Positions 4,431 to 15,339 of a DNA stretch of 45,051 bases are shown in pieces. Made by a program: the position numbers and the translations under genes. Origin of the DNA: Vectrevirus T145P2; the sequence record OZ035747.1; one strand, given 5' to 3'. Every line of letters begins with the position of its first letter. Position 1 is the stretch's first letter. The notes under the pieces were generated by a model, which had not been told where the DNA came from, searched no databases, and saw only the letters and a list, made by a program, of their open reading frames with translations.

Positions 4431-5870
4431 ATGGCTAATATTACCAAACCTGTCACAACTGGTATTATACATGAAGGAAGGCTGCTATCAGATTATCTAA
4501 AACAAGCATGGGATAACACCTTACACGCTGATAACTACTTTGTTAGTGTTAAAGACTTTGGCGCTAAGGGTGATGGCTCTGCTGATGATACTGCTGCATT
4601 CAAAGCTGCACTTGCTTCTGGTAAGAATGTATATATCCCTGTAGGTATTTATATAATTAGTGAGACTTTGTATTTTAAGAATCAGGTTATAAAAGGGGGC
4701 GGAATAGCACCTATTCCGAGTCTTGGTACAATCCTTGCAATCTCACACAGTGAGCCTGCATTGAAATATGATGTAAGTGCAGGTTACTCTATGGGTGGTT
4801 ATTTAGGTGGGTTCTTCATAGATTATGGAGAGAACAAACCAGATAACTATGCAGGCAGAAAAGGCATAGATCTAGGTGATGCCGACCAACAAGCATGGCC
4901 TTCTCAATTTATCATTGAGAACATCATTGTCCGTGGTGCATACTTTGGTTTGCATGATGAAACAGGAGCATTCCAATACTCAATGCGCAATGTGGTTGCT
5001 ATCAATTGCTGGGAGGGGTTCCGTAAGTTCACTGGAACTACAGTCCTTATGGATACATGCTATGCGCTTAATTGCTATCAAGCATATAGACTGGCTAATG
5101 TTTATAATATGACAATGAATAACTGCGCCATGGATGGATGTAATGATATCCAAGGTTTACAGGCATTTGATATTACAAACTGCAAAGGTCTTGTGATAAA
5201 TGGCATGTATAGTGAGAATTGTGAGATCCATCATAGCGGTAATGCTTCTATATTTATTCATGGAGATTCTACAGTAACAATCAACGGTTATACCTTACAC
5301 TCGCATAATGTCGTTGTTGATCCAGCATCTGGAAGTGAAGAAGCATACTTTCTTAGAGCGCACGACAGCTCTAGGGTCAATGTAGATGGAATCTTCTTCG
5401 GTGAGAACCTTAAATCTACTAGTATCTTCACCTACCCAATTATGGCCTCTGGTGAGTCTAGAATTAAGCTAGGAACTACAGCACTTAAGGCATGGGTCGG
5501 TGCTAAGGGTGGTGCATCTATGGCTGCTGTTGAAGATAGTCTCATTGAATATGACAATACCGTATTTAACCCATCACTTACTGTAGGTTGGTGCAGTAAT
5601 AATGGTGTTGTAGCTAAAGGGACACTAGTTGTAAACACAACATTAGAACCTAATGCAGATTTAAATGCAGGAACTATACAATTAGTTGGTGACTATAAAC
5701 CAAATAAAGGTGATGTTCTTACATATGGTTCTACTTTCGATGTTCAATCATGTGCTATTATTCTGAAGCCACAAGGTGATAATAGTTGTAATGTTTACAT
5801 TAAAAACCTAAGTGCAGGTAGTAGTGTTACACTTAACGGAATATTGCACGTACAGGCAATTCGTAGGTAA
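4431..5870 (+). CDS. tailspike 1: beta-helix polysaccharide depolymerase/lyase-like protein (possibly K5-type lyase)
   Basis: AGGAGG then ATG 4431; 479 aa; KDFGAKGDGSADDTAAFKAALASGKNVYIP start of pectate-lyase-like beta-helix; repeated N-x-C turns; lacks T7 gp17-type N-terminal domain. Confidence 0.75.
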   Translation: MANITKPVTTGIIHEGRLLSDYLKQAWDNTLHADNYFVSVKDFGAKGDGSADDTAAFKAALASGKNVYIPVGIYIISETLYFKNQVIKGGGIAPIPSLGTILAISHSEPALKYDVSAGYSMGGYLGGFFIDYGENKPDNYAGRKGIDLGDADQQAWPSQFIIENIIVRGAYFGLHDETGAFQYSMRNVVAINCWEGFRKFTGTTVLMDTCYALNCYQAYRLANVYNMTMNNCAMDGCNDIQGLQAFDITNCKGLVINGMYSENCEIHHSGNASIFIHGDSTVTINGYTLHSHNVVVDPASGSEEAYFLRAHDSSRVNVDGIFFGENLKSTSIFTYPIMASGESRIKLGTTALKAWVGAKGGASMAAVEDSLIEYDNTVFNPSLTVGWCSNNGVVAKGTLVVNTTLEPNADLNAGTIQLVGDYKPNKGDVLTYGSTFDVQSCAIILKPQGDNSCNVYIKNLSAGSSVTLNGILHVQAIRR

Positions 5871-5953: not shown

Positions 5954-8389
5954 ATGATTCAAAGACTAGGTTCTTCATTAGTTAAATTCAAGAGTAAAAT
6001 AGCAGGTGCAATCTGGCGTAACTTGGATGACAAGCTCACCGAGGTTGTATCGCTTAAAGATTTTGGAGCCAAAGGTGATGGTAAGACAAACGACCAAGAT
6101 GCAGTAAATGCAGCGATGGCTTCAGGTAAGAGAATTGACGGTGCTGGTGCTACTTACAAAGTATCATCTTTACCTGATATGGAGCGATTCTATAACACCC
6201 GCTTCGTATGGGAACGTTTAGCAGGTCAACCTCTTTACTATGTGAGTAAAGGTTTTATCAATGGTGAACTATATAAAATCACGGATAACCCTTATTACAA
6301 TGCTTGGCCTCAAGACAAAGCGTTTGTATATGAGAACGTGATATATGCACCTTACATGGGTAGTGACCGTCATGGTGTTAGTCGTCTGCATGTATCATGG
6401 GTTAAGTCTGGTGACGATGGTCAAACATGGTCTACTCCAGAGTGGTTAACTGATCTGCATCCAGATTACCCTACAGTGAACTATCATTGTATGAGCATGG
6501 GTGTATGTCGCAACCGTCTGTTTGCCATGATTGAAACACGTACTTTAGCCAATAACGCACTAACCAATTGTGCATTGTGGGATCGTCCTATGTCTCGTAG
6601 TCTGCACCTTACTGGTGGTATCACTAAGGCTGCAAATCAGCAATATGCAACAATACATGTACCAGATCACGGATTATTCGTGGGCGATTTTGTTAACTTC
6701 TCTAATTCTGCGGTAACAGGTGTATCAGGTGATATGACTGTTGCAACGGTAATAGATAAGGACAACTTCACGGTTCTTACACCTAACCAGCAGACTTCAG
6801 ATTTGAATAACGCTGGAAAGAGTTGGCACATGGGTACTTCTTTCCATAAGTCTCCATGGCGTAAGACAGATCTTGGTCTAATCCCTAGTGTCACAGAGGT
6901 GCATAGCTTTGCTACTATTGATAACAATGGCTTTGTTATGGGATATCATCAAGGTGATGTAGCTCCACGAGAAGTTGGTCTTTTCTACTTCCCTGATGCT
7001 TTCAATAGCCCATCTAATTATGTTCGTCGTCAGATACCATCTGAGTATGAACCAGATGCGTCAGAGCCATGCATCAAGTACTATGACGGTGTATTATACC
7101 TTATCACTCGTGGCACTCGTGGTGACAGACTTGGAAGCTCTTTGCATCGTAGTAGAGATATAGGTCAGACTTGGGAGTCACTGAGATTTCCACATAATGT
7201 TCATCATACTACCTTACCTTTTGCTAAAGTAGGAGATGACCTTATTATGTTTGGTTCAGAACGTGCAGAAAATGAATGGGAAGCAGGTGCACCAGATGAC
7301 CGTTACAGGGCATCTTATCCTCGTACCTTCTATGCACGATTGAATGTAAACAATTGGAATGCAGATGATATTGAATGGGTTAACATCACAGACCAAATCT
7401 ATCAAGGGGACATTGTGAACTCTAGTGTAGGTGTAGGTTCTGTTGTAGTTAAAGACAGCTACATTTACTATATCTTTGGTGGTGAAAATCATTTCAACCC
7501 AATGACTTATGGTGACAACAAAAATAAAGACCCATTTAAAGGTCATGGACACCCTACTGATATATACTGCTATAAGATGCAGATTGCAAATGACAATCGT
7601 GTATCTCGTAAGTTTACATATGGTGCAACTCCTGGTCAAGCTATACCTACTTTCATGGGTACTGATGGGGTACGAAATATCCCTGCACCTTTGTATTTCT
7701 CAGATAACATTGTTACAGAGGATACTAAAGTTGGACACTTAACAATTAAAGCAAGCACAAGTTCCAATATACGATCTGAAGCGCAGATGGAAGGTGAATA
7801 TGGCTTTATTGGCAAGTCTGTTCCAAAGGATAACCCAACTGGTCAACGTTTGATTATTTGTGGTGGAGAAGAGACTTCGTCCTCTTCAGGTGCACAGATA
7901 ACTTTGCACGGCTCTAATTCAAGTAATGCTAATCGTATCACTTATAACGGAAATGAGCACCTATTCCAAGGTGCACCAATCATGCCTGCTGTAGATAACC
8001 AGTTTGCTGCTGGTGGGCCTAGTAACCGATTCACTACCATCTACCTAGGTAGTGACCCTGTTACAACTTCAGATGCTGAACACAAGTACGGCATCTCTAG
8101 TATTAATACCAAGGTGTTAAAGGCTTGGGGTAGAGTTGGTTTTAAACAGTATGGTTTGAATAGTGAAGCAGAGAGGAATCTTGATAGCATACACTTCGGT
8201 GTCTTGGCTCAGGATATTGTAGCTGCTTTTGAAGCTGAAGGATTGGATGCCATTAAGTATGGAATTGTGTCCTTCGAAGAAGGTAGGTACGGTGTGAGAT
8301 ATAGTGAAGTTCTAATCCTAGAGGCTGCCTACACTCGCCATCGTCTTGATAAATTAGAGGAGATGTACGCCGCTAATAAAATCAGTTAA
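5954..8389 (+). CDS. tailspike 2: endo-N-acetylneuraminidase (endosialidase) with C-terminal intramolecular chaperone domain
   Basis: AAAGGAGG then ATG 5954; 811 aa; C-terminal SDAEHKYGISS...LDSIHFGVLAQD region resembles the self-cleaving chaperone domain of K1-phage endosialidases (from memory). Confidence 0.85.
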   Translation: MIQRLGSSLVKFKSKIAGAIWRNLDDKLTEVVSLKDFGAKGDGKTNDQDAVNAAMASGKRIDGAGATYKVSSLPDMERFYNTRFVWERLAGQPLYYVSKGFINGELYKITDNPYYNAWPQDKAFVYENVIYAPYMGSDRHGVSRLHVSWVKSGDDGQTWSTPEWLTDLHPDYPTVNYHCMSMGVCRNRLFAMIETRTLANNALTNCALWDRPMSRSLHLTGGITKAANQQYATIHVPDHGLFVGDFVNFSNSAVTGVSGDMTVATVIDKDNFTVLTPNQQTSDLNNAGKSWHMGTSFHKSPWRKTDLGLIPSVTEVHSFATIDNNGFVMGYHQGDVAPREVGLFYFPDAFNSPSNYVRRQIPSEYEPDASEPCIKYYDGVLYLITRGTRGDRLGSSLHRSRDIGQTWESLRFPHNVHHTTLPFAKVGDDLIMFGSERAENEWEAGAPDDRYRASYPRTFYARLNVNNWNADDIEWVNITDQIYQGDIVNSSVGVGSVVVKDSYIYYIFGGENHFNPMTYGDNKNKDPFKGHGHPTDIYCYKMQIANDNRVSRKFTYGATPGQAIPTFMGTDGVRNIPAPLYFSDNIVTEDTKVGHLTIKASTSSNIRSEAQMEGEYGFIGKSVPKDNPTGQRLIICGGEETSSSSGAQITLHGSNSSNANRITYNGNEHLFQGAPIMPAVDNQFAAGGPSNRFTTIYLGSDPVTTSDAEHKYGISSINTKVLKAWGRVGFKQYGLNSEAERNLDSIHFGVLAQDIVAAFEAEGLDAIKYGIVSFEEGRYGVRYSEVLILEAAYTRHRLDKLEEMYAANKIS

Positions 8390-8589
8390 GCAAGCTGCTG
8401 TACGCCAGAACGCAGAAGAACTTATTCAATCAGGACGTGACCCTAAGCAGGCATACGCCATTGCCAAGGATGTACAACGTCGTGCCTTGAAGAAATCTTC
8501 TGCATCTTCTGCTTAAGCAGGTTAATATCTTAGTGTACACAAGGGCAGACCTAGGTTTGCTCTTAGTGCCATCAAAGGAGGGTGTAGGT

Positions 8590-8697
8590 ATGTTATCTTT
8601 GTTGTGTATACTCAGTGATGTCCTAGGTCGTAAGAGGTACATTCTTAGTGAAGACCAAATAAGGGACGAGAAGATACGGAGGTCGCTCACAAAGTAA
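8590..8697 (+). CDS. small hypothetical ORF (35 aa) at the extreme right end of the gene map
   Basis: GGAGG then ATG 8590 with 8-nt spacing; basic peptide; no homolog recognised. Confidence 0.3.
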   Translation: MLSLLCILSDVLGRKRYILSEDQIRDEKIRRSLTK

Positions 8698-9055
8698 CCA
8701 AAGTCAAAATTTTGATATAGGCGTGTGTGAGGTGTCTCGCCCTCGCCCTCGCCGGATTTCCCCCATATGGGGCCGCGCTGCGGTTGGCTTGGGAGTTGGG
8801 CTGGGCTGGTCCGTCTTCGACGGGTGGCCTAGGGCTTGCCGAGGTCTGCTCTTAGTGGCTGCACAAGGAGAACGCCTAGGAAGCGCTAGGGCACGCCTTA
8901 GTATTGGACAAGGTGATTGCCTTAGTGCAACCGCTTAGGGCTTACACAGGCCGTTTTAGGGCCATTCATGAGCGTTTGACAGGGTGGGCGTGGGTGGGCT
9001 ATCTGTTCGTTTCGCTCCACTACGTTACGCTACACTCACCGCGCTTGTGTATCCT

Positions 9056-9064
9056 TGGTATAAT
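9056..9064 (+). promoter_or_regulatory. candidate host sigma70 extended -10 element
   Basis: TGGTATAAT (TGnTATAAT) in the non-coding terminal region. Confidence 0.35.
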
Positions 9065-9406
9065 CCTGATGGATGGCTTAGGTTAGACTTAGTGGGCTAC
9101 CTTAGTTAAAGCCTTAGTGCTTAGCTTAGTATCAACTTAGTAGTGTACCTTAGTAAGTCTTAGTGTCTTCTCTTAGTGATTGCATAGCTAAAGCTATAAG
9201 ATGCAATTAGGTCGCGGTCGGTAGACCGCTAATAAGAAGTAATAGTAATAAGATGCAGTAGGAGGAACACCAGAAACCTAGCCAACCTAGTCTATCCTAG
9301 CTCTGTATCTATTGCTTTCCTTAGTCTCACATGTTAGACAACCTAGGTTTATCTTAGTAGTTGTGACATGTATCACATAAATAATCTATCTTAGTGCGAT
9401 TTAGTG

Positions 9407-9435
9407 TTGACATAGGCAGTTAACAGGTATACATT
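9407..9435 (+). promoter_or_regulatory. candidate host sigma70 early promoter
   Basis: TTGACA - 17 nt - TACATT. Confidence 0.55.
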
Positions 9436-9658
9436 AGCAATCAGTCGGGAGCGACATTAAACACTCAGGGTGAATGATAGAGAGCGTCCTTAACTATCCG
9501 GCCTAGCTACTGAAGCCGTTAAACAATGTTAGATAGTGGAAGATGGCGCAAGCATAACCTACCACGATAAACCAAGGTTAGCGCAATGCTCTTTAACAAT
9601 TTGCTTAGTGTAACCTGTGTATGCCGTGGTTAATTACTTATTGAATGAGGGATTAACT

Positions 9659-9775
9659 ATGAATTACGAAGAAATGTATGAAGTCTATTTCGACTCATTA
9701 GATGAAGGAGAAGAAGCATTAACCTTCGCTGAGTTTATGGAGGCTTTATGGAGTTTCTATCATGACTCTAAATAA
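9659..9775 (+). CDS. small acidic early protein (38 aa)
   Basis: ATG 9659; first ORF after the host promoter; not in ORF track (<60 aa). Confidence 0.4.
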   Translation: MNYEEMYEVYFDSLDEGEEALTFAEFMEALWSFYHDSK

Positions 9776-9938
9776 CCGTGAACTATCCGTCCTCTTCACT
9801 CTGTTATGCTACATGATTCGTAACAACGAATTACTTACAGATGACGAGTTGGCACTATATCACCGCTTTCTTAACGAAGGTTGGACAGATACAGTTAACC
9901 ATAAACGTGACTTGATGAAGGAGTTAGGCAATGTATAA
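9762..9938 (+). CDS. small early protein (58 aa)
   Basis: ATG 9762; overlaps neighbours by a few nt as is common in T7-like early regions. Confidence 0.4.
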   Translation: MTLNNRELSVLFTLLCYMIRNNELLTDDELALYHRFLNEGWTDTVNHKRDLMKELGNV

Positions 9939-10140
9939 GCATGAGATTTACACGGCTTGCAATAAATCGGCTAAGGTTATCATTGAGATGTACAAGGCAG
10001 AATGTCAGGCGTACAACCTCAATGATGGTACCGAGATGTTTTATCTTCAGTTTGAAAGCAAGTTATCTCACAAACGAGTGATTAGCAGTCTTAATCAACA
10101 CTCTTTAGATTGGGAAGAAGTGAACAGCAATAAACTTTAA
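9931..10140 (+). CDS. early hypothetical protein (69 aa)
   Basis: ORF track; ATG 9931. Confidence 0.55.
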   Translation: MYKHEIYTACNKSAKVIIEMYKAECQAYNLNDGTEMFYLQFESKLSHKRVISSLNQHSLDWEEVNSNKL

Positions 10141-10148
10141 ATTAACTA

Positions 10149-10177
10149 TTGACAACCACGGCATACAAGGTTACATT
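10149..10177 (+). promoter_or_regulatory. candidate host sigma70 early promoter, twin of 9407
   Basis: TTGACA - 17 nt - TACATT, identical hexamers and AGGT before the -10 as at 9407. Confidence 0.55.
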
Positions 10178-10424
10178 AAGCATCAAGACGGCGACGTCTT
10201 TAAAAATCACGCTCTTTAACAATAGAGATTAGGCCGGGAGTATCGGTGTGAGGGATAAGGAGGCTTTCCCACAATTAAACTGGTGGCAAAAGGATTGCCC
10301 AGCTTTATAGCCCAGTTATGGATAGCAATAGCGTAAGGATGGCAGCACACCCGCGAGTCTAATCTCTAGCTCTTTAACAATCTGGCTAGTGCCTTGGTAG
10401 GCTAACTACTTACTAAGGTGAACT

Positions 10425-10637
10425 ATGAACTACTGCGACATCGCTCACGAATTACGCATGGAACGTGAGAAACAAGAAAGGCGGATTATCAAGAAGATGG
10501 CTGTACTGCTTGCACACTATAAGGCAGACAAACAGCCAACACATGATGAGTTCGTTGACTTCTGTAACATGTATCTTAATGTGAGTAAGGCCACTGGTTA
10601 CAGATGGCTTAAAGCACTGAATGATGGAGAATTGTAG
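10425..10637 (+). CDS. early hypothetical protein (70 aa), possible small DNA-binding protein
   Basis: AAGGTGAACT then ATG; C-terminal SKATGYRWLKAL resembles a helix-turn-helix. Confidence 0.55.
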   Translation: MNYCDIAHELRMEREKQERRIIKKMAVLLAHYKADKQPTHDEFVDFCNMYLNVSKATGYRWLKALNDGEL

Positions 10638-10736
10638 TAATAAGCCAGCTTAATAGCTGGCCTATCAAGGCACTAACCTAGCTCTTTAACAATCTGGTTT
10701 GTGTCTTGATAGGCTTACTAACAAAGGTGAACTATC

Positions 10737-10901
10737 ATGACTAACGCACAACGTAAACGCTATGATGCATTGCAAGAGAAACTTGCTGTTGCTTATGCCG
10801 CTTGGCAAGCTAACACAGACAAGAGCAAACACGATAAACTTTATAGTAAAGTGGTTGCAATTAATGCTAAAATAGATAAACTTGTGAATAGTATCTTATA
10901 A
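10737..10901 (+). CDS. small early protein (54 aa), predicted helical
   Basis: ATG 10737 after AAAGGTGA; followed by hairpin 10909-10924. Confidence 0.45.
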   Translation: MTNAQRKRYDALQEKLAVAYAAWQANTDKSKHDKLYSKVVAINAKIDKLVNSIL

Positions 10902-11050
10902 GATAGTTGCTGGCACTAGCCAGCCTATCAAGGCACAAGCCACGCTCTTTAACAATATGGGTAGTCGCTTCTTAGTCTGGATAGGTTAAACCTAGGGTAT
11001 TCTTTTGAGTGCCCTATAATGTAAACTAACTAACTAATGAGGATTAAATC

Positions 11051-11380
11051 ATGGAACGCAACGCTAACGCTTACTACAACCTTCTGGCTGCAACTGTTGA
11101 AGCATTCAACGAGCGCATCAAGTACGATGAGATTCGTGAAGATGATGATTACTCTGATGCACTGCATGAGGTTGTAGATAGCATGGTGCCAGTTTATTAC
11201 AGCGAAATCTTTACTGTGATGGCTGCTGATGGCATTGATGTTGATTTTGAAGATGCTGGTTTGATTCCTGATACGAAGGATGTAACCAAGATTCTACAAG
11301 CTCGCATCTATGAAGCTCTTTATAATGATGTACCAAATGACAGCGATGTAGTTTGGTATGAAGGCGAAGAAGAGGAATAA
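11051..11380 (+). CDS. ocr: Ocr-like DNA-mimic anti-restriction protein (T7 gp0.3 homolog)
   Basis: 109 aa, very acidic; VPVYYSEIFTVMAADGIDVDFEDAGLIPDTKDVTKILQARIYEAL closely parallels the T7 Ocr core as I recall it. Confidence 0.88.
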   Translation: MERNANAYYNLLAATVEAFNERIKYDEIREDDDYSDALHEVVDSMVPVYYSEIFTVMAADGIDVDFEDAGLIPDTKDVTKILQARIYEALYNDVPNDSDVVWYEGEEEE

Positions 11381-11384
11381 TAAG

Positions 11385-11498
11385 ATGGAAAGGCAATATA
11401 ACTTCATATTTTCAGACGGTGTAACCCTGAAATGTTCCTTACGATTTGCGCAGATTCGTGAGGAAGTGCTAGGTACTACATACAAACTATTTAGCTGA
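11385..11498 (+). CDS. small early protein (37 aa)
   Basis: GAGGA then ATG 11385. Confidence 0.35.
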   Translation: MERQYNFIFSDGVTLKCSLRFAQIREEVLGTTYKLFS

Positions 11499-11512
11499 CA
11501 CTATAAGAGAAG
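11489..11512 (+). promoter_or_regulatory. variant phage RNAP promoter-like site
   Basis: ATTTAGCTGACACTATAAGAGAAG; SP6-like upstream half, altered initiation region. Confidence 0.4.
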
Positions 11513-11574
11513 GCTTAACAAGGCGTTGCTACGGTAGCGCCTGATTAAACTTTCACTTACTAGAGGTTAAGATT

Positions 11575-11700
11575 ATGAAACTATCGCCATCCGCTAAAGG
11601 CCTCATTGCAGAACTTAAAGATTCTTTGAGGAATCCAATCATTTGGGCACTTATCTACATACCTTATGGTATCTACCTATTTCACCTCATCACTGAGTAA
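11575..11700 (+). CDS. small hydrophobic early protein (41 aa)
   Basis: AGAGG then ATG 11575; IIWALIYIPYGIYLFHLI hydrophobic segment. Confidence 0.4.
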   Translation: MKLSPSAKGLIAELKDSLRNPIIWALIYIPYGIYLFHLITE

Positions 11701-11763
11701 CTAGCCTATAGCCTACCTGAGTGGGCTATGTGATACTTACTTACACTATATAAGGTGATTACT

Positions 11764-12648
11764 ATGACTACTGAAAACGTCCTCCTGTCTGTTCGTGAAG
11801 CTGCAACCGCTGAAATCAAGCAGCACTTAGACAATATCGGCACTTCTTACATCAAAGTTGGCGCTTGTCTGAATGAATTACGCGGTGATTTCGAAGGTCA
11901 AAAAGACTTTTTAGCTTATGTAGAATCAGAGTTCGGCATCAAGAAGGCACAATGTTACAAGCTGATGAGTGTAGCCCGTGTCTTTGAAGGAGATGATCGC
12001 TTTAAAGGCGTGGCGATGCGTGTAATGCTGGCGCTTGTTCCTTTCGCTGATGAAAATATAATCATGGAGAAGGCCGCAGAACTCGCCGCAGCTGGCAAGC
12101 TGGACACTAATGCCGTAAACGCCCTGATTGAACCTAAGAAAGAGATAAAGACTGAAACGGTACAATCTAAGGCTGAGGCGGTAAAACCGCAGGAGAACGC
12201 TACTGAGGCCGCAGAATCACAGGAAATGCAAGCGCCGCAGGTAGTGCCACCAGCGAGCGAGCAGGAGGCCGACGAATCAGCACCATGGGAAGAGGAAAGC
12301 AAGCCGGAAGCGCCAAAGGCAGCGCCGCTGGATAACACGGCTAATACAGAAAACGCCGCTATGGCTAGCCTCTTAGCACAAATTAAGGCACTGACTGAGC
12401 AATTACAGGCAGCTAATGACCGCATCGCCTCCTTAAGTAGCGCACGCGAAAGCAAGAAGGCAGCCGCACCTATGCTGCCGCAATTCAAATCTTCCTGCTT
12501 CTATGCTCGCTTAGGTTTAAGCGCTGAGGAGGCAATGAAGAAAACAGCAGTTAACAAGGCACGCCGCGAACTGGTTAAGCTAGGCTACGGTGAAGGCCAT
12601 GAAGCATGGCCCTTAATCTCTGAGGCAGTAGAAGAGTTGACTAAGTAA
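11764..12648 (+). CDS. early protein with DUF3102-like N-terminal domain, acidic Ala/Pro-rich linker and small C-terminal domain
   Basis: TAAGG then ATG 11764; 294 aa; LRGDFEGQKDFLAYVESEFGIKKAQCYKLM motif; low-complexity EAAESQEMQAPQ linker. Confidence 0.7.
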   Translation: MTTENVLLSVREAATAEIKQHLDNIGTSYIKVGACLNELRGDFEGQKDFLAYVESEFGIKKAQCYKLMSVARVFEGDDRFKGVAMRVMLALVPFADENIIMEKAAELAAAGKLDTNAVNALIEPKKEIKTETVQSKAEAVKPQENATEAAESQEMQAPQVVPPASEQEADESAPWEEESKPEAPKAAPLDNTANTENAAMASLLAQIKALTEQLQAANDRIASLSSARESKKAAAPMLPQFKSSCFYARLGLSAEEAMKKTAVNKARRELVKLGYGEGHEAWPLISEAVEELTK

Positions 12649-12711: not shown

Positions 12712-15339
12712 ATGCAAGACCTACACGCTATTCAACTTCAACTTGAAGAAGAAATGTTTAACGGCGGTATCCGTCGCTTTGAAGCTGACCAACAACGCCA
12801 GATTGCATCCGGTAATGAATCAGACACGGCATGGAATCGACGCTTATTGTCCGAACTAATCGCACCTATGGCGGAAGGTATTCAGGCTTACAAGGAAGAA
12901 TACGAAGGCAAGAGAGGTCGTGCACCCCGTGCATTAGCTTTCATTAACTGCGTAGGAAACGAAGTGGCAGCATATATCACCATGAAAATCGTTATGGATA
13001 TGCTGAATACAGACGTTACCTTACAAGCTATCGCTATGAATGTAGCAGACCGCATCGAGGACCAAGTACGTTTTAGCAAGCTGGAAGGTCACGCAGCTAA
13101 GTATTTTGAGAAAGTGAAGAAGTCGCTTAAGGCTAGCAAGACTAAATCTTATCGTCATGCGCACAACGTAGCGGTAGTAGCTGAGAAATCTGTTGCTGAC
13201 CGTGACGCGGATTTCTCCCGTTGGGAGGCATGGCCTAAAGACACCTTGCTGCAAATCGGTATGACCTTGCTCGAAATATTGGAGAATAGTGTATTCTTCA
13301 ATGGTCAACCTGTCTTCCTTCGTACCTTGCGCACTAACGGCGGAAAGCATGGTGTTTACTATTTACAGACCAGTGAACATGTTGGCGAGTGGATAACTGC
13401 ATTTAAGGAACATGTAGCTCAGCTCAGCCCTGCCTATGCACCTTGCGTTATACCTCCCCGCCCTTGGGTATCACCTTTTAACGGTGGGTTTCATACTGAG
13501 AAAGTAGCAAGCCGTATTCGTCTGGTAAAAGGCAATCGTGAGCACGTCCGCAAGCTGACCAAAAAGCAAATGCCAGCCGTTTATAAGGCTGTTAACGCTT
13601 TGCAGGCAACTAAGTGGCAGGTTAATAAAGAGGTTTTACAGGTTGTGGAGGACGTTATACGTCTAGACCTCGGCTATGGTGTGCCTTCCTTTAAACCACT
13701 CATCGACCGTGAGAACAAGCCAGCTAATCCAGTGCCGTTAGAGTTCCAGCACCTGCGAGGCCGTGAACTTAAAGAGATGCTAACGCCGGAACAATGGCAA
13801 GCCTTCATCAACTGGAAAGGCGAATGTACCAAGCTGTATACCGCTGAAACTAAGCGCGGCAGCAAATCGGCGGCGACCGTCCGCATGGTTGGGCAGGCAC
13901 GTAAATACAGCCAGTTTGACGCCATCTACTTCGTGTATGCACTGGACAGCCGCAGCCGCGTCTACGCGCAATCTAGCACGCTCTCTCCGCAATCAAACGA
14001 CTTAGGCAAGGCATTGCTCCGTTTTACCGAAGGGCAGCGCCTCGATAGCGCTGAGGCGCTTAAATGGTTTTTGGTGAACGGGGCTAATAACTGGGGTTGG
14101 GATAAGAAGACTTTTGACGTGCGCACCGCTAACGTGCTGGATAGTGAATTTCAAGACATGTGCCGCGACATTGCAGCGGATCCGCTTACCTTCACTCAAT
14201 GGGTGAATGCCGACTCCCCTTACGGCTTCCTTGCTTGGTGCTTTGAATATGCGCGTTATCTGGATGCACTGGATGAAGGCACGCAAGACCAATTCATGAC
14301 GCACCTCCCCGTCCATCAAGATGGTAGTTGTTCTGGTATCCAGCACTACAGTGCTATGCTACGCGATGCAGTAGGTGCGAAAGCAGTAAACCTTAAGCCC
14401 TCTGATTCTCCTCAAGATATTTATGGTGCCGTTGCGCAGGTAGTAATTCAGAAGAATTATGCATACATGAATGCAGAGGATGCGGAAACCTTCACTTCTG
14501 GCAGCGTGACTTTAACAGGTGCGGAACTGCGTAGCATGGCTAGTGCGTGGGATATGATAGGAATCACTCGCGGCCTGACCAAAAAGCCCGTAATGACACT
14601 ACCTTACGGCAGCACACGTCTAACCTGCCGTGAGTCAGTGATTGATTATATCGTTGATTTGGAAGAAAAAGAGGCCCAACGGGCTATTGCGGAAGGGCGT
14701 ACCGCCAATCCTGTACATCCTTTTGATAATGACCGCAAAGACAGCCTGACACCTAGCGCAGCTTATAACTATATGACAGCTTTAATCTGGCCTTCTATTT
14801 CGGAAGTGGTTAAAGCTCCTATAGTGGCAATGAAAATGATTCGTCAGCTTGCACGTTTCGCAGCTAAAAGAAACGAAGGCTTAGAATATCCCTTACCAAC
14901 TGGCTTCATCTTGCAACAAAAGATAATGGCTACCGATATGCTCCGCGTATCCACTTGCTTGATGGGTGAAATCAAGATGAGTCTCCAGATTGAAACAGAT
15001 GTAGTTGATGAAACGGCAATGATGGGTGCGGCTGCTCCTAACTTCGTCCATGGTCACGATGCTAGCCACCTGATTCTGACTGTATGTGACCTAGTGGATA
15101 AAGGTATTACATCCATTGCAGTCATCCATGATTCTTTCGGTACTCATGCAGGACGTACCGCAGACCTGCGGGATAGCTTAAGGGAAGAAATGGTTAAGAT
15201 GTATCAAAACCATAATGCCCTGCAAAACCTGCTAGATGTGCACGAAGAGCGTTGGTTAGTAGACACCGGAATCCAAGTACCAGAGCAAGGAGAGTTTGAC
15301 CTTAACGAAATCTTAGTTTCAGACTATTGTTTCGCATAA
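12712..15339 (+). CDS. single-subunit DNA-directed RNA polymerase (T7 gp1-like)
   Basis: 875 aa; collinear with T7 RNAP including PFCFLAFCFEY-like [27 protein letters not shown] and IHDSFGTHA motifs. Confidence 0.97.

Follow-up and report, generated by a model that had tools for sequence, protein, structure and literature searches.

What are five identical copies of a 13-nucleotide (nt) sequence doing in the early region of a phage genome? The question is raised by Vectrevirus T145P2 (sequence record OZ035747.1), of which the whole stretch of 45,051 nt analysed here is called the window. The sequence GCTCTTTAACAAT occurs in it five times, at 9588-9600 (copy 1), 10211-10223 (copy 2), 10369-10381 (copy 3), 10681-10693 (copy 4) and 10944-10956 (copy 5, the last). 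Every copy is exact and on the plus strand, and none lies elsewhere in the 45 kb; the counts and positions given in a preliminary description of this DNA are borne out exactly. A chance origin was considered and rejected, dinucleotide-preserving shuffles expecting 0.00 exact matches against the 5 present.

The answer proposed here, with a probability of about 0.6, takes the ribosomal RNA (rRNA) operons (rrn) of the host as its model. By this analogy the 13-mer, as a boxA, would have the host RNA polymerase modified by Nus factors; an RNase III-type cleavage would excise the gene cassette that follows; and the next boxA would re-load the factors, so that the early region would behave as an rrn-like operon. 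The ingredients are already known, namely the rrn-type boxA and the RNase III processing of rRNA and of the early messenger RNAs (mRNAs) of T7. Iterated boxA sites coupled to gene-enclosing stems were not found described in the literature searched. Nor did that literature describe a boxA in phages of the T7 or SP6 groups; key sources on both groups lay outside the search, and an earlier mention is possible. The single boxA of T7 is said to be known to specialists. The deposited records of K1E, SP6, K1-5, ULINTec4 and T7 annotate neither the 13-mer nor a boxA nor RNase III sites.

Identity and conservation of the 13-mer

A direct pattern search on the rrnB operon of Escherichia coli K-12 finds GCTCTTTAACAAT identical at 13/13 positions to the leader boxA (L003, 317-329, 130 nt before the 16S gene) and at 12/13 to the boxA of the 16S-23S spacer, with one mismatch. 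The rrn spacer "box A anti-terminator" is given elsewhere as CGCTCTTTAACAAT (PMC4553445). All five copies also match perfectly GYTCTTTAANA, the functional boxA consensus of gamma-proteobacteria (Baniulyte et al. 2017, PMC5725501). A BLAST search of the copy-4 region against E. coli genomes gave only a 20-nt prophage match. Judged by its identity, then, the 13-mer is an rrn-type boxA, a loading site for NusB/NusE; it is not part of an RNase III site, and it went unrecognised in the preliminary description, which had likened its setting to such sites.

The same 13 positions are under constraint in related phages. Over 74 distinct contexts, positions 0-12 are about 93-100% conserved; those that the search pattern left unfixed are A at position 11 (100%) and T at position 12 (93%), and both degenerate pattern positions are 95% C. 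An extension N-TGG-N-T after boxA is 76-93% conserved, and conservation in the flanks drops to 35-55% directly upstream of boxA and past +18. Among viral contigs with an ocr homologue, a sense-strand boxA lies upstream of ocr in nearly all T7-like ones, as 1 copy, and SP6-like ones carry 2-3 copies there. By phage, SP6 has 2 copies plus one with 1 mismatch, K1E has 3 plus one with a 1-nt insertion, K1-5 has 3, and ULINTec4, like the window, has 5.

Two occurrences outside these phages may be recorded here. The 20-nt prophage match, TAGCTCTTTAACAATCTGGT, comprises boxA and the phage-type CTGG extension; it lies in E. coli CFSAN061762 (L002, 2501-2520) and is present in 373 of 5426 E. coli genomes. 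There the site is preceded by a LexA-family (cI-like) repressor gene, followed after 40 nt by a small open reading frame (ORF) and adjacent to ymfL and cro-like genes; it may be an rrn-type nut-like site of a lambdoid or e14-like prophage. Proteus phage Stubb (L171, MH830339, 104 kb), unrelated to the T7/SP6 group, has four tandem units of a strong promoter followed by an rrn-type boxA, on the minus strand at record positions ~4800-5800, inside a predicted terminal repeat (boxA at 401, 576, 1278 and 1366 of the reversed locus). One arm-to-promoter stem of -33 kcal/mol is found in it, in which the 5' arm is complementary to the next TTGACA-17-TATAAT promoter, the same design as the arm after boxA 1 and the promoter P2 described below. 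Stubb suggests that the boxA module is in wider use by virulent phages of Enterobacterales.

Local folding at the five copies

The preliminary description had placed each copy in a long imperfect hairpin. Such a hairpin exists at copy 4, at 10661-10713: the minimum free energy (MFE) of 10640-10735 is -36.9 kcal/mol (z = -5.5). A strong local hairpin is absent at the other copies. Local-fold z scores for copies 1 to 5 are -0.47, -1.59, +0.20, -5.48 and -3.55, the last deriving mostly from two adjacent small hairpins. The duplex between the 34 nt on either side of the 13-mer has -20, -15, -14, -33 and -21 kcal/mol, respectively, against -12.6 +/- 3.4 kcal/mol for pairwise arm duplexes in shuffles; locally, copies 2 and 3 pair no better than background and copies 1 and 5 only weakly.

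The same holds among relatives. Pairing of upstream with downstream flank at or below -28 kcal/mol occurs at 2 of 73 array sites, copy 4 of the window and its counterpart in K1E, and at none of the 108 single sites. The hairpin at copy 4 exists because two neighbouring cassettes share one family of arms, as set out below. Folding reveals no local structure conserved over the five copies, an outcome that the preliminary description had itself named as a refutation and that here applies to the local-hairpin form of its idea; a local hairpin as a conserved feature is ruled out by the folding of the sites, the arm energies in the window and the 73 array sites.

Long-range stems and the genes they enclose

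The flanks of the 13-mers pair with one another at a distance. The arm directly after boxA(n), here D, is complementary to the one that immediately precedes boxA(n+1), here U; each arm is about 20-30 nt long, and the two enclose the gene or genes between them. Four such stems lie in the window, all read on the plus strand. Stem S1 pairs a 5' arm at 9602-9631 (family I), which starts 1 nt after boxA 1, with a 3' arm at 10154-10182. The duplex has about 28-30 base pairs (bp) and -48.1 kcal/mol, is present as a 28-bp helix in the global MFE structure, and encloses 9659-10140. This cargo of cassette 1 consists of three small overlapping ORFs (9659-9775, 9762-9938 and 9931-10140) from the ORF list, which match PHROG families with E values of 4.5e-14 to 8e-40.

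Stems S3 and S4, of 19 bp each, use arms of family II. S3 pairs 10384-10402 with 10660-10678 (-37 kcal/mol) and ends 2 nt before boxA 4; its cargo, cassette 3, is a listed ORF of 70 amino acids (aa) at 10425-10637. S4 pairs 10696-10714 with 10923-10941 (-38.7 kcal/mol), ends 2 nt before boxA 5 and encloses a listed 54-aa ORF at 10737-10901, cassette 4. The 5' arm of S4 has an alternative partner in 10660-10678 (-33 kcal/mol), which gives the local hairpin of copy 4. Both ORFs have PHROG matches, and the families to which the cargo ORFs of the cassettes belong are of unknown function.

S2 is the weakest of the four. It pairs 10223-10238 with 10352-10368 (cassette 2, 10223-10368), has a duplex energy of -28 kcal/mol and a 15-bp helix in the MFE structure, and encloses a segment of 145 nt without an ORF; the claim that each copy lies upstream of an early gene stands for four of the five copies, copy 2 being followed by this segment. 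The cassette 2 module is known from only 8 near-identical phage records (98.6-100% identical) and hence carries no comparative signal. Between 10224 and 10368 there is no plus-strand ORF of at least 25 aa. A strong Shine-Dalgarno (SD)-like TAAGGAGG at 10255-10262 is followed 9 nt later by an ATT-initiated frame of 20 codons, IKLVAKGLPSFIAQLWIAIA, read by eye; the segment may encode a very short peptide from a non-canonical or decayed start, or else a small RNA.

These energies can be set against scans with shuffled arms, whose best partners average about -20 to -26 kcal/mol. Since the strongest single shuffled arm reaches -30 kcal/mol, S1, S3 and S4 are well clear of the background; S2 is borderline in energy and draws its support from its exact position. 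The arm downstream of copy 5 has no long-range partner, its best of -23 to -26 kcal/mol equalling the scan background, and the single boxA of T7-like phages, T7 included, likewise has none above the shuffled-arm background.

Related phages repeat the arrangement. Across 20 related loci, each internal D arm finds its best downstream partner 0-27 nt ahead of the next boxA, at -31 to -53 kcal/mol; in the one exception (L045, site 2741) the distance is 105 nt. Among the 46 non-identical pairs of consecutive boxA sites in all loci fetched, 37 form a D:U duplex of -28 kcal/mol or stronger, with a median of -40 kcal/mol; the energies of these strong stems are given as -33 to -53 kcal/mol. The same downstream arm also stands beside non-complementary upstream arms, for example at L053 site 1042 and L043 site 1683.

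Small hairpins accompany the arms. The GC hairpins of the preliminary description at 10644-10661 (GCCAGC-TTAATA-GCTGGC) and 10909-10924 (GCTGGC-ACTA-GCCAGC) are present, as is the repeated CTATCAAGGCAC. On the plus strand the two hairpins abut the 5' side of the 3' arms of S3 and S4, respectively. Every family II 3' arm has a GC-rich hairpin of 6-7 bp against its 5' side, with a stem sequence that varies among phages: SP6 has GGCTGGC..GCTGGCC with G.U pairs, L054 has GGTCGGC-GCAA-GCTGGCC, and L051 has an equivalent. Lacking a U-run, they are not intrinsic terminators; they may be 3' stabilisers or part of a three-way junction. A further small hairpin, AAGACG-GCGA-CGTCTT with a GNRA loop, folds on the plus strand at 10185-10200, between promoter P2 and boxA 2 in a boxB-like position; relatives have GCC-GAGA-GGC in its place.

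Covariation of the arms

Are the stems maintained as structures? For this comparison the two arm families were aligned as pseudo-hairpins (alignment A2 for family II, A3 for family I). In family II (12 distinct stems, 19 pairs), 97.8% of the cells are standard pairs, and 7 of 19 pairs have changed on both sides. The covariation score is 0.325, against 0.153 +/- 0.019 in shuffles; the shuffle counts, like the binomial p-value, are nominal because the stems were energy-filtered before alignment and the rows are phylogenetically related. When the partner is slid by 1-3 columns, only 28-40% of cells pair. Family I (14 stems, 30 pairs) is 95.7% paired, with 7 of 30 double-change pairs and 25-38% in the slid controls. 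The arms show the compensation directly: TGTATGCCGTGG/CCACGGCATACA in one stem corresponds to TGTAAGCCGTGG/CCACGGCTTACA in another, GGATAGTGTCGTGATAGGC/GCCTATCACGACACTATCC and ATGACCGTGTATTGATAGGC/GCCTATCAATACACGGTCAT are further such pairs, and L037 has a wholly different one.

The exceptions to Watson-Crick pairing carry information on the strand. G.U cells number 36 and A.C cells 9, and this excess of G.U argues for pairing in the plus-strand RNA, not for an inverted repeat in the DNA or a minus-strand RNA. On these alignments, D:U pairing has been kept through compensatory changes in SP6-like phages and in some T7-like ones.

Exchange of cassettes at the junctions

The sequences between consecutive boxA sites, when clustered, show a constant frame with changing content. 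No fewer than nine unrelated cargos stand between family II arms. Relatives differ in which cassettes they have and in the order of these; in SP6 and L054 the family II cassette precedes the family I cassette, the reverse of the window. With the T7-like phage K30, the window shares 10681-10969 at 95% identity, a block that opens with the first base of copy 4, stops 13 nt beyond copy 5 and includes the whole of cassette 4. Distant SP6-like phages of Salmonella and Klebsiella share only about 9584-9662 of the early region DNA, that is, copy 1 and its arm. K1E lacks a unit of 158 nt between copies 2 and 3, and the junction lies inside boxA. Because homology blocks end at boxA and cassettes vary between junctions, the junction modules (3' arm, boxA and 5' arm) also behave as recombination points.

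The early region around the array

The early region shares 96-98% identity with its counterparts at the left ends of K1E-like coliphages, for example ULINTec4 and K1E, and by this resemblance the window is that of a K1E/K1-5-like Vectrevirus (Autographiviridae, Molineuxvirinae, SP6 group). K1E position 608 aligns with window 9300, which places the left end of the genome near window 8690. The array lies about 0.9-2.3 kb from this end, with ocr (11051-11380) and the gene for the phage RNA polymerase (12712-15339) downstream of it, and all five copies are co-oriented with the early genes. In the T7 group, the segment at this position is transcribed by the host RNA polymerase.

Two sigma70-like early promoters with the motif TTGACA-17-TACATT are predicted by consensus scan on the plus strand. 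P1 (9407-9435, 10/12 match) lies about 150 nt upstream of boxA copy 1. P2 (10149-10177, with TTGACA at 10149-10154 and TACATT at 10172-10177) overlaps the 3' arm of S1; the 5' arm that follows boxA 1 is therefore complementary to a promoter. Relatives retain TTGACA-17-TACATT even where the sequence of the family I arm differs. In strand and position, all five boxA copies agree with what RNA synthesised by the host polymerase from such sigma70-like promoters would be expected to carry.

The resemblance to T7 RNase III sites, drawn in the preliminary description for the 13-mers, fails at the boxA sites and fits, by shape, three local hairpins farther downstream. The nearest is an irregular plus-strand hairpin at 10962-11046 (upper stem 10993-11018), just upstream of ocr and a candidate RNase III site of the T7 R0.3 type. 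Its MFE is -28 kcal/mol (z = -3.6), its topology is that of the fold of T7 826-925, and in shape and part of its sequence it agrees with the stretch of T7 that separates boxA from gene 0.3 and contains the RNase III site R0.3 (near T7 nt 890). Among relatives the upper stem shows covariation (GGGTATTC/GAGTGCCC, GGAGATTC/GAGTCTCC and GGAGGCT/AGCCTCC). The others, at 11496-11570 (z = -5.1) and 11694-11743 (z = -3.0), lie between early genes, and all three have the stem, internal loop and stem of T7 RNase III sites.

A search of 8300-12000 against Rfam at relaxed thresholds found nothing relevant and no covariance model at or near its gathering score. Sub-threshold chance matches were to mir-5879 (25 bits against a gathering score of 97), a meaningless one produced by 11496-11570, and to fstAT (18 against 72).

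The non-coding genome-end region holds a short repeat of its own. The heptamer CTTAGTG occurs in 11 plus-strand copies within 8529-9610 (about 1.1 kb) and in 21 copies over the whole window, where 7.7 +/- 3.0 are expected; the last copy of the cluster falls within the 5' arm of S1. This heptamer cluster recalls the short repeat arrays near the ends of the T7 genome.

Likeness to the rRNA operon and to other systems

The closest counterpart of the array is the rRNA operon itself. In rrn, elongation complexes are nucleated by a nut-like element of boxB, boxA and boxC; NusB-NusE bind boxA and keep this 5' element fastened at the RNA exit of the polymerase, a second nut-like element lies in the spacer, and a model of "delivery" coupled to RNase III has been described (PMC8632103). 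In rrnB, the 16S stem opens directly behind the boxA at 317-329: when the leader past boxA is matched to the region beyond 16S, the strongest duplex joins 330-372 to 2006-2048 at -56.6 kcal/mol. Its 5' arm starts 0 nt after the 13-mer, against 1-3 nt in the phage. Both systems thus have the identical 13-nt boxA followed by the 5' arm of a long-range duplex around a cargo, a second boxA after the first stem, a small hairpin upstream of boxA at the position of boxB, and sigma70 promoters farther upstream (predicted ones in the phage). The order of the module is shared: small hairpin, boxA, 5' arm, cargo, 3' arm, next boxA.

The differences concern cargo, number and spacing. In the phage the cargo is one to three small protein-coding genes and not rRNA, and the unit is iterated 4-5 times over 1.4 kb. 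Its 3' arm abuts the next boxA (0-27 nt), whereas in rrnB 274 nt with a transfer RNA intervene. Unlike rrn, the family I 3' arm contains the conserved TTGACA-17-TACATT promoter, and there is no recognisable boxC; the conserved N-TGG-N-T follows boxA instead.

Other phage and cellular systems share parts of this design. T7 belongs to the same virus family and also has its early genes transcribed by the host polymerase. It has one boxA-like CGCTCTTTAACAATCTGG between promoter A3 and gene 0.3, where the window has five copies, and its promoters A1-A3 are accompanied by local RNase III hairpins only (R0.3 to R1.3), in contrast to the gene-enclosing stems seen here. In lambda, nutL and nutR likewise place a boxA in an early phage transcript, where it recruits NusB/NusE to the host polymerase; the lambda boxA is the variant CGCTCTTA, boxB lies downstream, and the N protein is needed (PMC8632103). 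The window has the full rrn consensus and its hairpins upstream rather than downstream; no N-like gene was noticed in it, and none was searched for. The 5' untranslated region of suhB resembles the window in having an rrn-consensus boxA before protein-coding genes, tens of nt from the start codon (PMC5725501). That site is single, represses translation and promotes Rho termination, and has neither flanking long-range stems nor iteration. The PeSL (promoter-early stem-loop) cassettes of T4-type phages, reportedly described by Arbiol et al. in 2010, are said to be small conserved modules between early ORFs as well, at mosaic boundaries with apparent gene shuffling. They consist of a promoter and a local stem-loop and are not known to have a boxA or gene-enclosing stems.

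Proposed mechanism and alternatives

How might such an array work? The five copies would be the single-stranded linkers of an iterated module, [3' arm]-boxA-[5' arm]-SD/ORF(s)-[3' arm]-boxA. Host polymerase starting at the early promoters would transcribe boxA, and the nascent boxA would bind NusB-NusE(S10); with NusA, NusG and SuhB this would give a fast polymerase, resistant to pausing and to Rho, as on rRNA operons. In phages of the T7 group, transcription by the host polymerase pulls the genome into the cell. Early transcription, and with it transcription-driven genome entry, could in this way proceed through poorly translated spacers. The boxA fastened to the polymerase would hold the 5' arm at the RNA exit and "deliver" it to the 3' arm as that emerges. 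The duplex of 19-30 bp would then be cut by RNase III, like the 16S and 23S stems, to release a cassette mRNA with paired ends. Cleavage would sever the old boxA, and the next one, emerging 0-27 nt later, would re-load the Nus factors. A transcript from P2 would not contain the 3' arm; it would start shortly ahead of the hairpin and boxA 2, much like an rrn P2 leader. On the DNA, the junction module would be the place where cassettes are gained, lost and exchanged by recombination. RNase III, to whose processing sites in T7 the preliminary description had likened these ones, is a reasonable player here: the flanking arms form 19-30 bp duplexes, of the class cut in rRNA precursors. What survives of that description is an RNA-level punctuation of a presumably host-transcribed early operon; the local T7-type hairpins as its means do not.

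Several features weigh against this mechanism. S2 has only about 15 bp and lacks covariation support, and the filtering by energy and the common descent of the aligned rows make the shuffle counts and the p-value nominal. Family II arms are interchangeable: the global MFE structure contains 10384-10402 paired with 10923-10941 plus the copy-4 hairpin, not S3 plus S4. Because of this interchangeability, thermodynamics do not fix the topology at copies 3-5; the comparative evidence and the order in which the RNA is transcribed lead us to favour S3 plus S4. Ribosomes translating the cargo could break up or delay the long-range pairing. BoxA is also dispensable in places, one T7-like contig (L034) having no recognisable boxA and two others (L028, L033) carrying the variant GTTCATTAACAAT. 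In K1E (L001, AM084415), the equivalent of copy 5 at ~2237-2250 reads GCTCTTTTAACAAT; the one extra T marks either a misread T-run or a copy disabled in nature. Finally, Nus binding, Rho resistance and RNase III cleavage are all steps that we infer from sequence and analogy.

Among the alternatives, one keeps boxA as a site of Nus loading and antitermination and leaves the stems uncut, as insulators or end-to-end clamps. The stems are real and conserved, and as clamps they could protect the cassette mRNA from RNase E and exonucleases or free its expression from the influence of neighbouring cargo; the GC hairpins abut the 3' arms as 3' stabilisers would, and the free exchange of cargo between identical arms fits an insulator. 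A near-perfect duplex of 19-30 bp is, however, a canonical substrate of E. coli RNase III, the identical layout in rrnB is cleaved by that enzyme, and a new boxA after every stem is most easily explained if the previous one has been cut off. We regard uncut stems as unlikely, though still worth keeping in mind. Lower stands the idea, taken from suhB, that boxA represses: a Nus complex 44-95 nt before the start codons would block ribosomes and allow Rho termination. Copies 3 and 4 end 44 nt before an ATG and copy 1 ends 58 nt before one, and boxA-dependent repression of translation is documented for a boxA within about 50 nt of a start codon (Baniulyte et al. 2017, PMC5725501). Such repression is very improbable for a lytic phage that needs read-through to an RNA polymerase gene about 1.7 kb past copy 5; no ORF follows copy 2, and the covarying coupling of boxA to the arms mirrors rrn and is absent from the suhB case.

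Two readings remain. The repeats could be inverted repeats with a 13-bp core that act in the DNA, as sites of cassette recombination or mobility with no function in RNA. Homology blocks do start and end at boxA (10681-10969 in K30, 9584-9662 in the distant phages), and cassette order and content vary between identical junctions. The preponderance of G.U over A.C points instead to selection on the plus-strand transcript, every copy points the way of transcription, the core matches the host rrn boxA exactly and no recombinase is associated with it; recombination at the junctions can, moreover, follow from their conservation. We think a purely DNA-level role has only a slim chance of being right. 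Slimmer still is that of the local hairpins, in which every 13-mer would be the mere conserved loop of a T7-type RNase III site. The copy-4 hairpin speaks for them, being retained in the global MFE structure of the early transcript, and so does the established separation of T7 early mRNAs by RNase III hairpins. The background or weak folding of the other four copies, the count of 2 in 73 array sites and the occurrence of one downstream arm beside non-complementary upstream arms all stand against them, and they leave the identity to the rrn boxA unexplained.

Implications for phage early regions

A bolder reading, to be held tentatively and at somewhat less than even odds, is that virulent enterobacterial phages have copied the full logic of the rRNA operon. 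Nus factors on boxA would chaperone the looping of each cassette, its excision by RNase III and the handover to the next, and the junction of about 60 nt would be a portable plug. If this is true, the plug, sometimes with a promoter, would serve to swap unrelated early genes among SP6-like phages, T7-like phages and possibly Stubb, and would constitute a self-insulating expression cassette system for host-takeover genes. The principle of the RNA polymerase as a chaperone, working through Nus and boxA, would extend from rRNA and one or two cellular genes to phage mRNA cassettes, and the array would offer compact natural loops of 200-600 nt for the "delivery" model of long-range helix formation and its coupling to RNase III.

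For the phages themselves, the module would account for the non-coding sequence that is best conserved in the early regions of therapeutic phages of the SP6/K1E type and for the mosaic boundaries in phage early regions. It predicts host dependencies on nusB, nusE, suhB and rnc for early expression and possibly for genome entry. It would also show where early genes for anti-defence and host takeover change places between phages, which would be useful for annotation and as engineered insertion sites in phage chassis.

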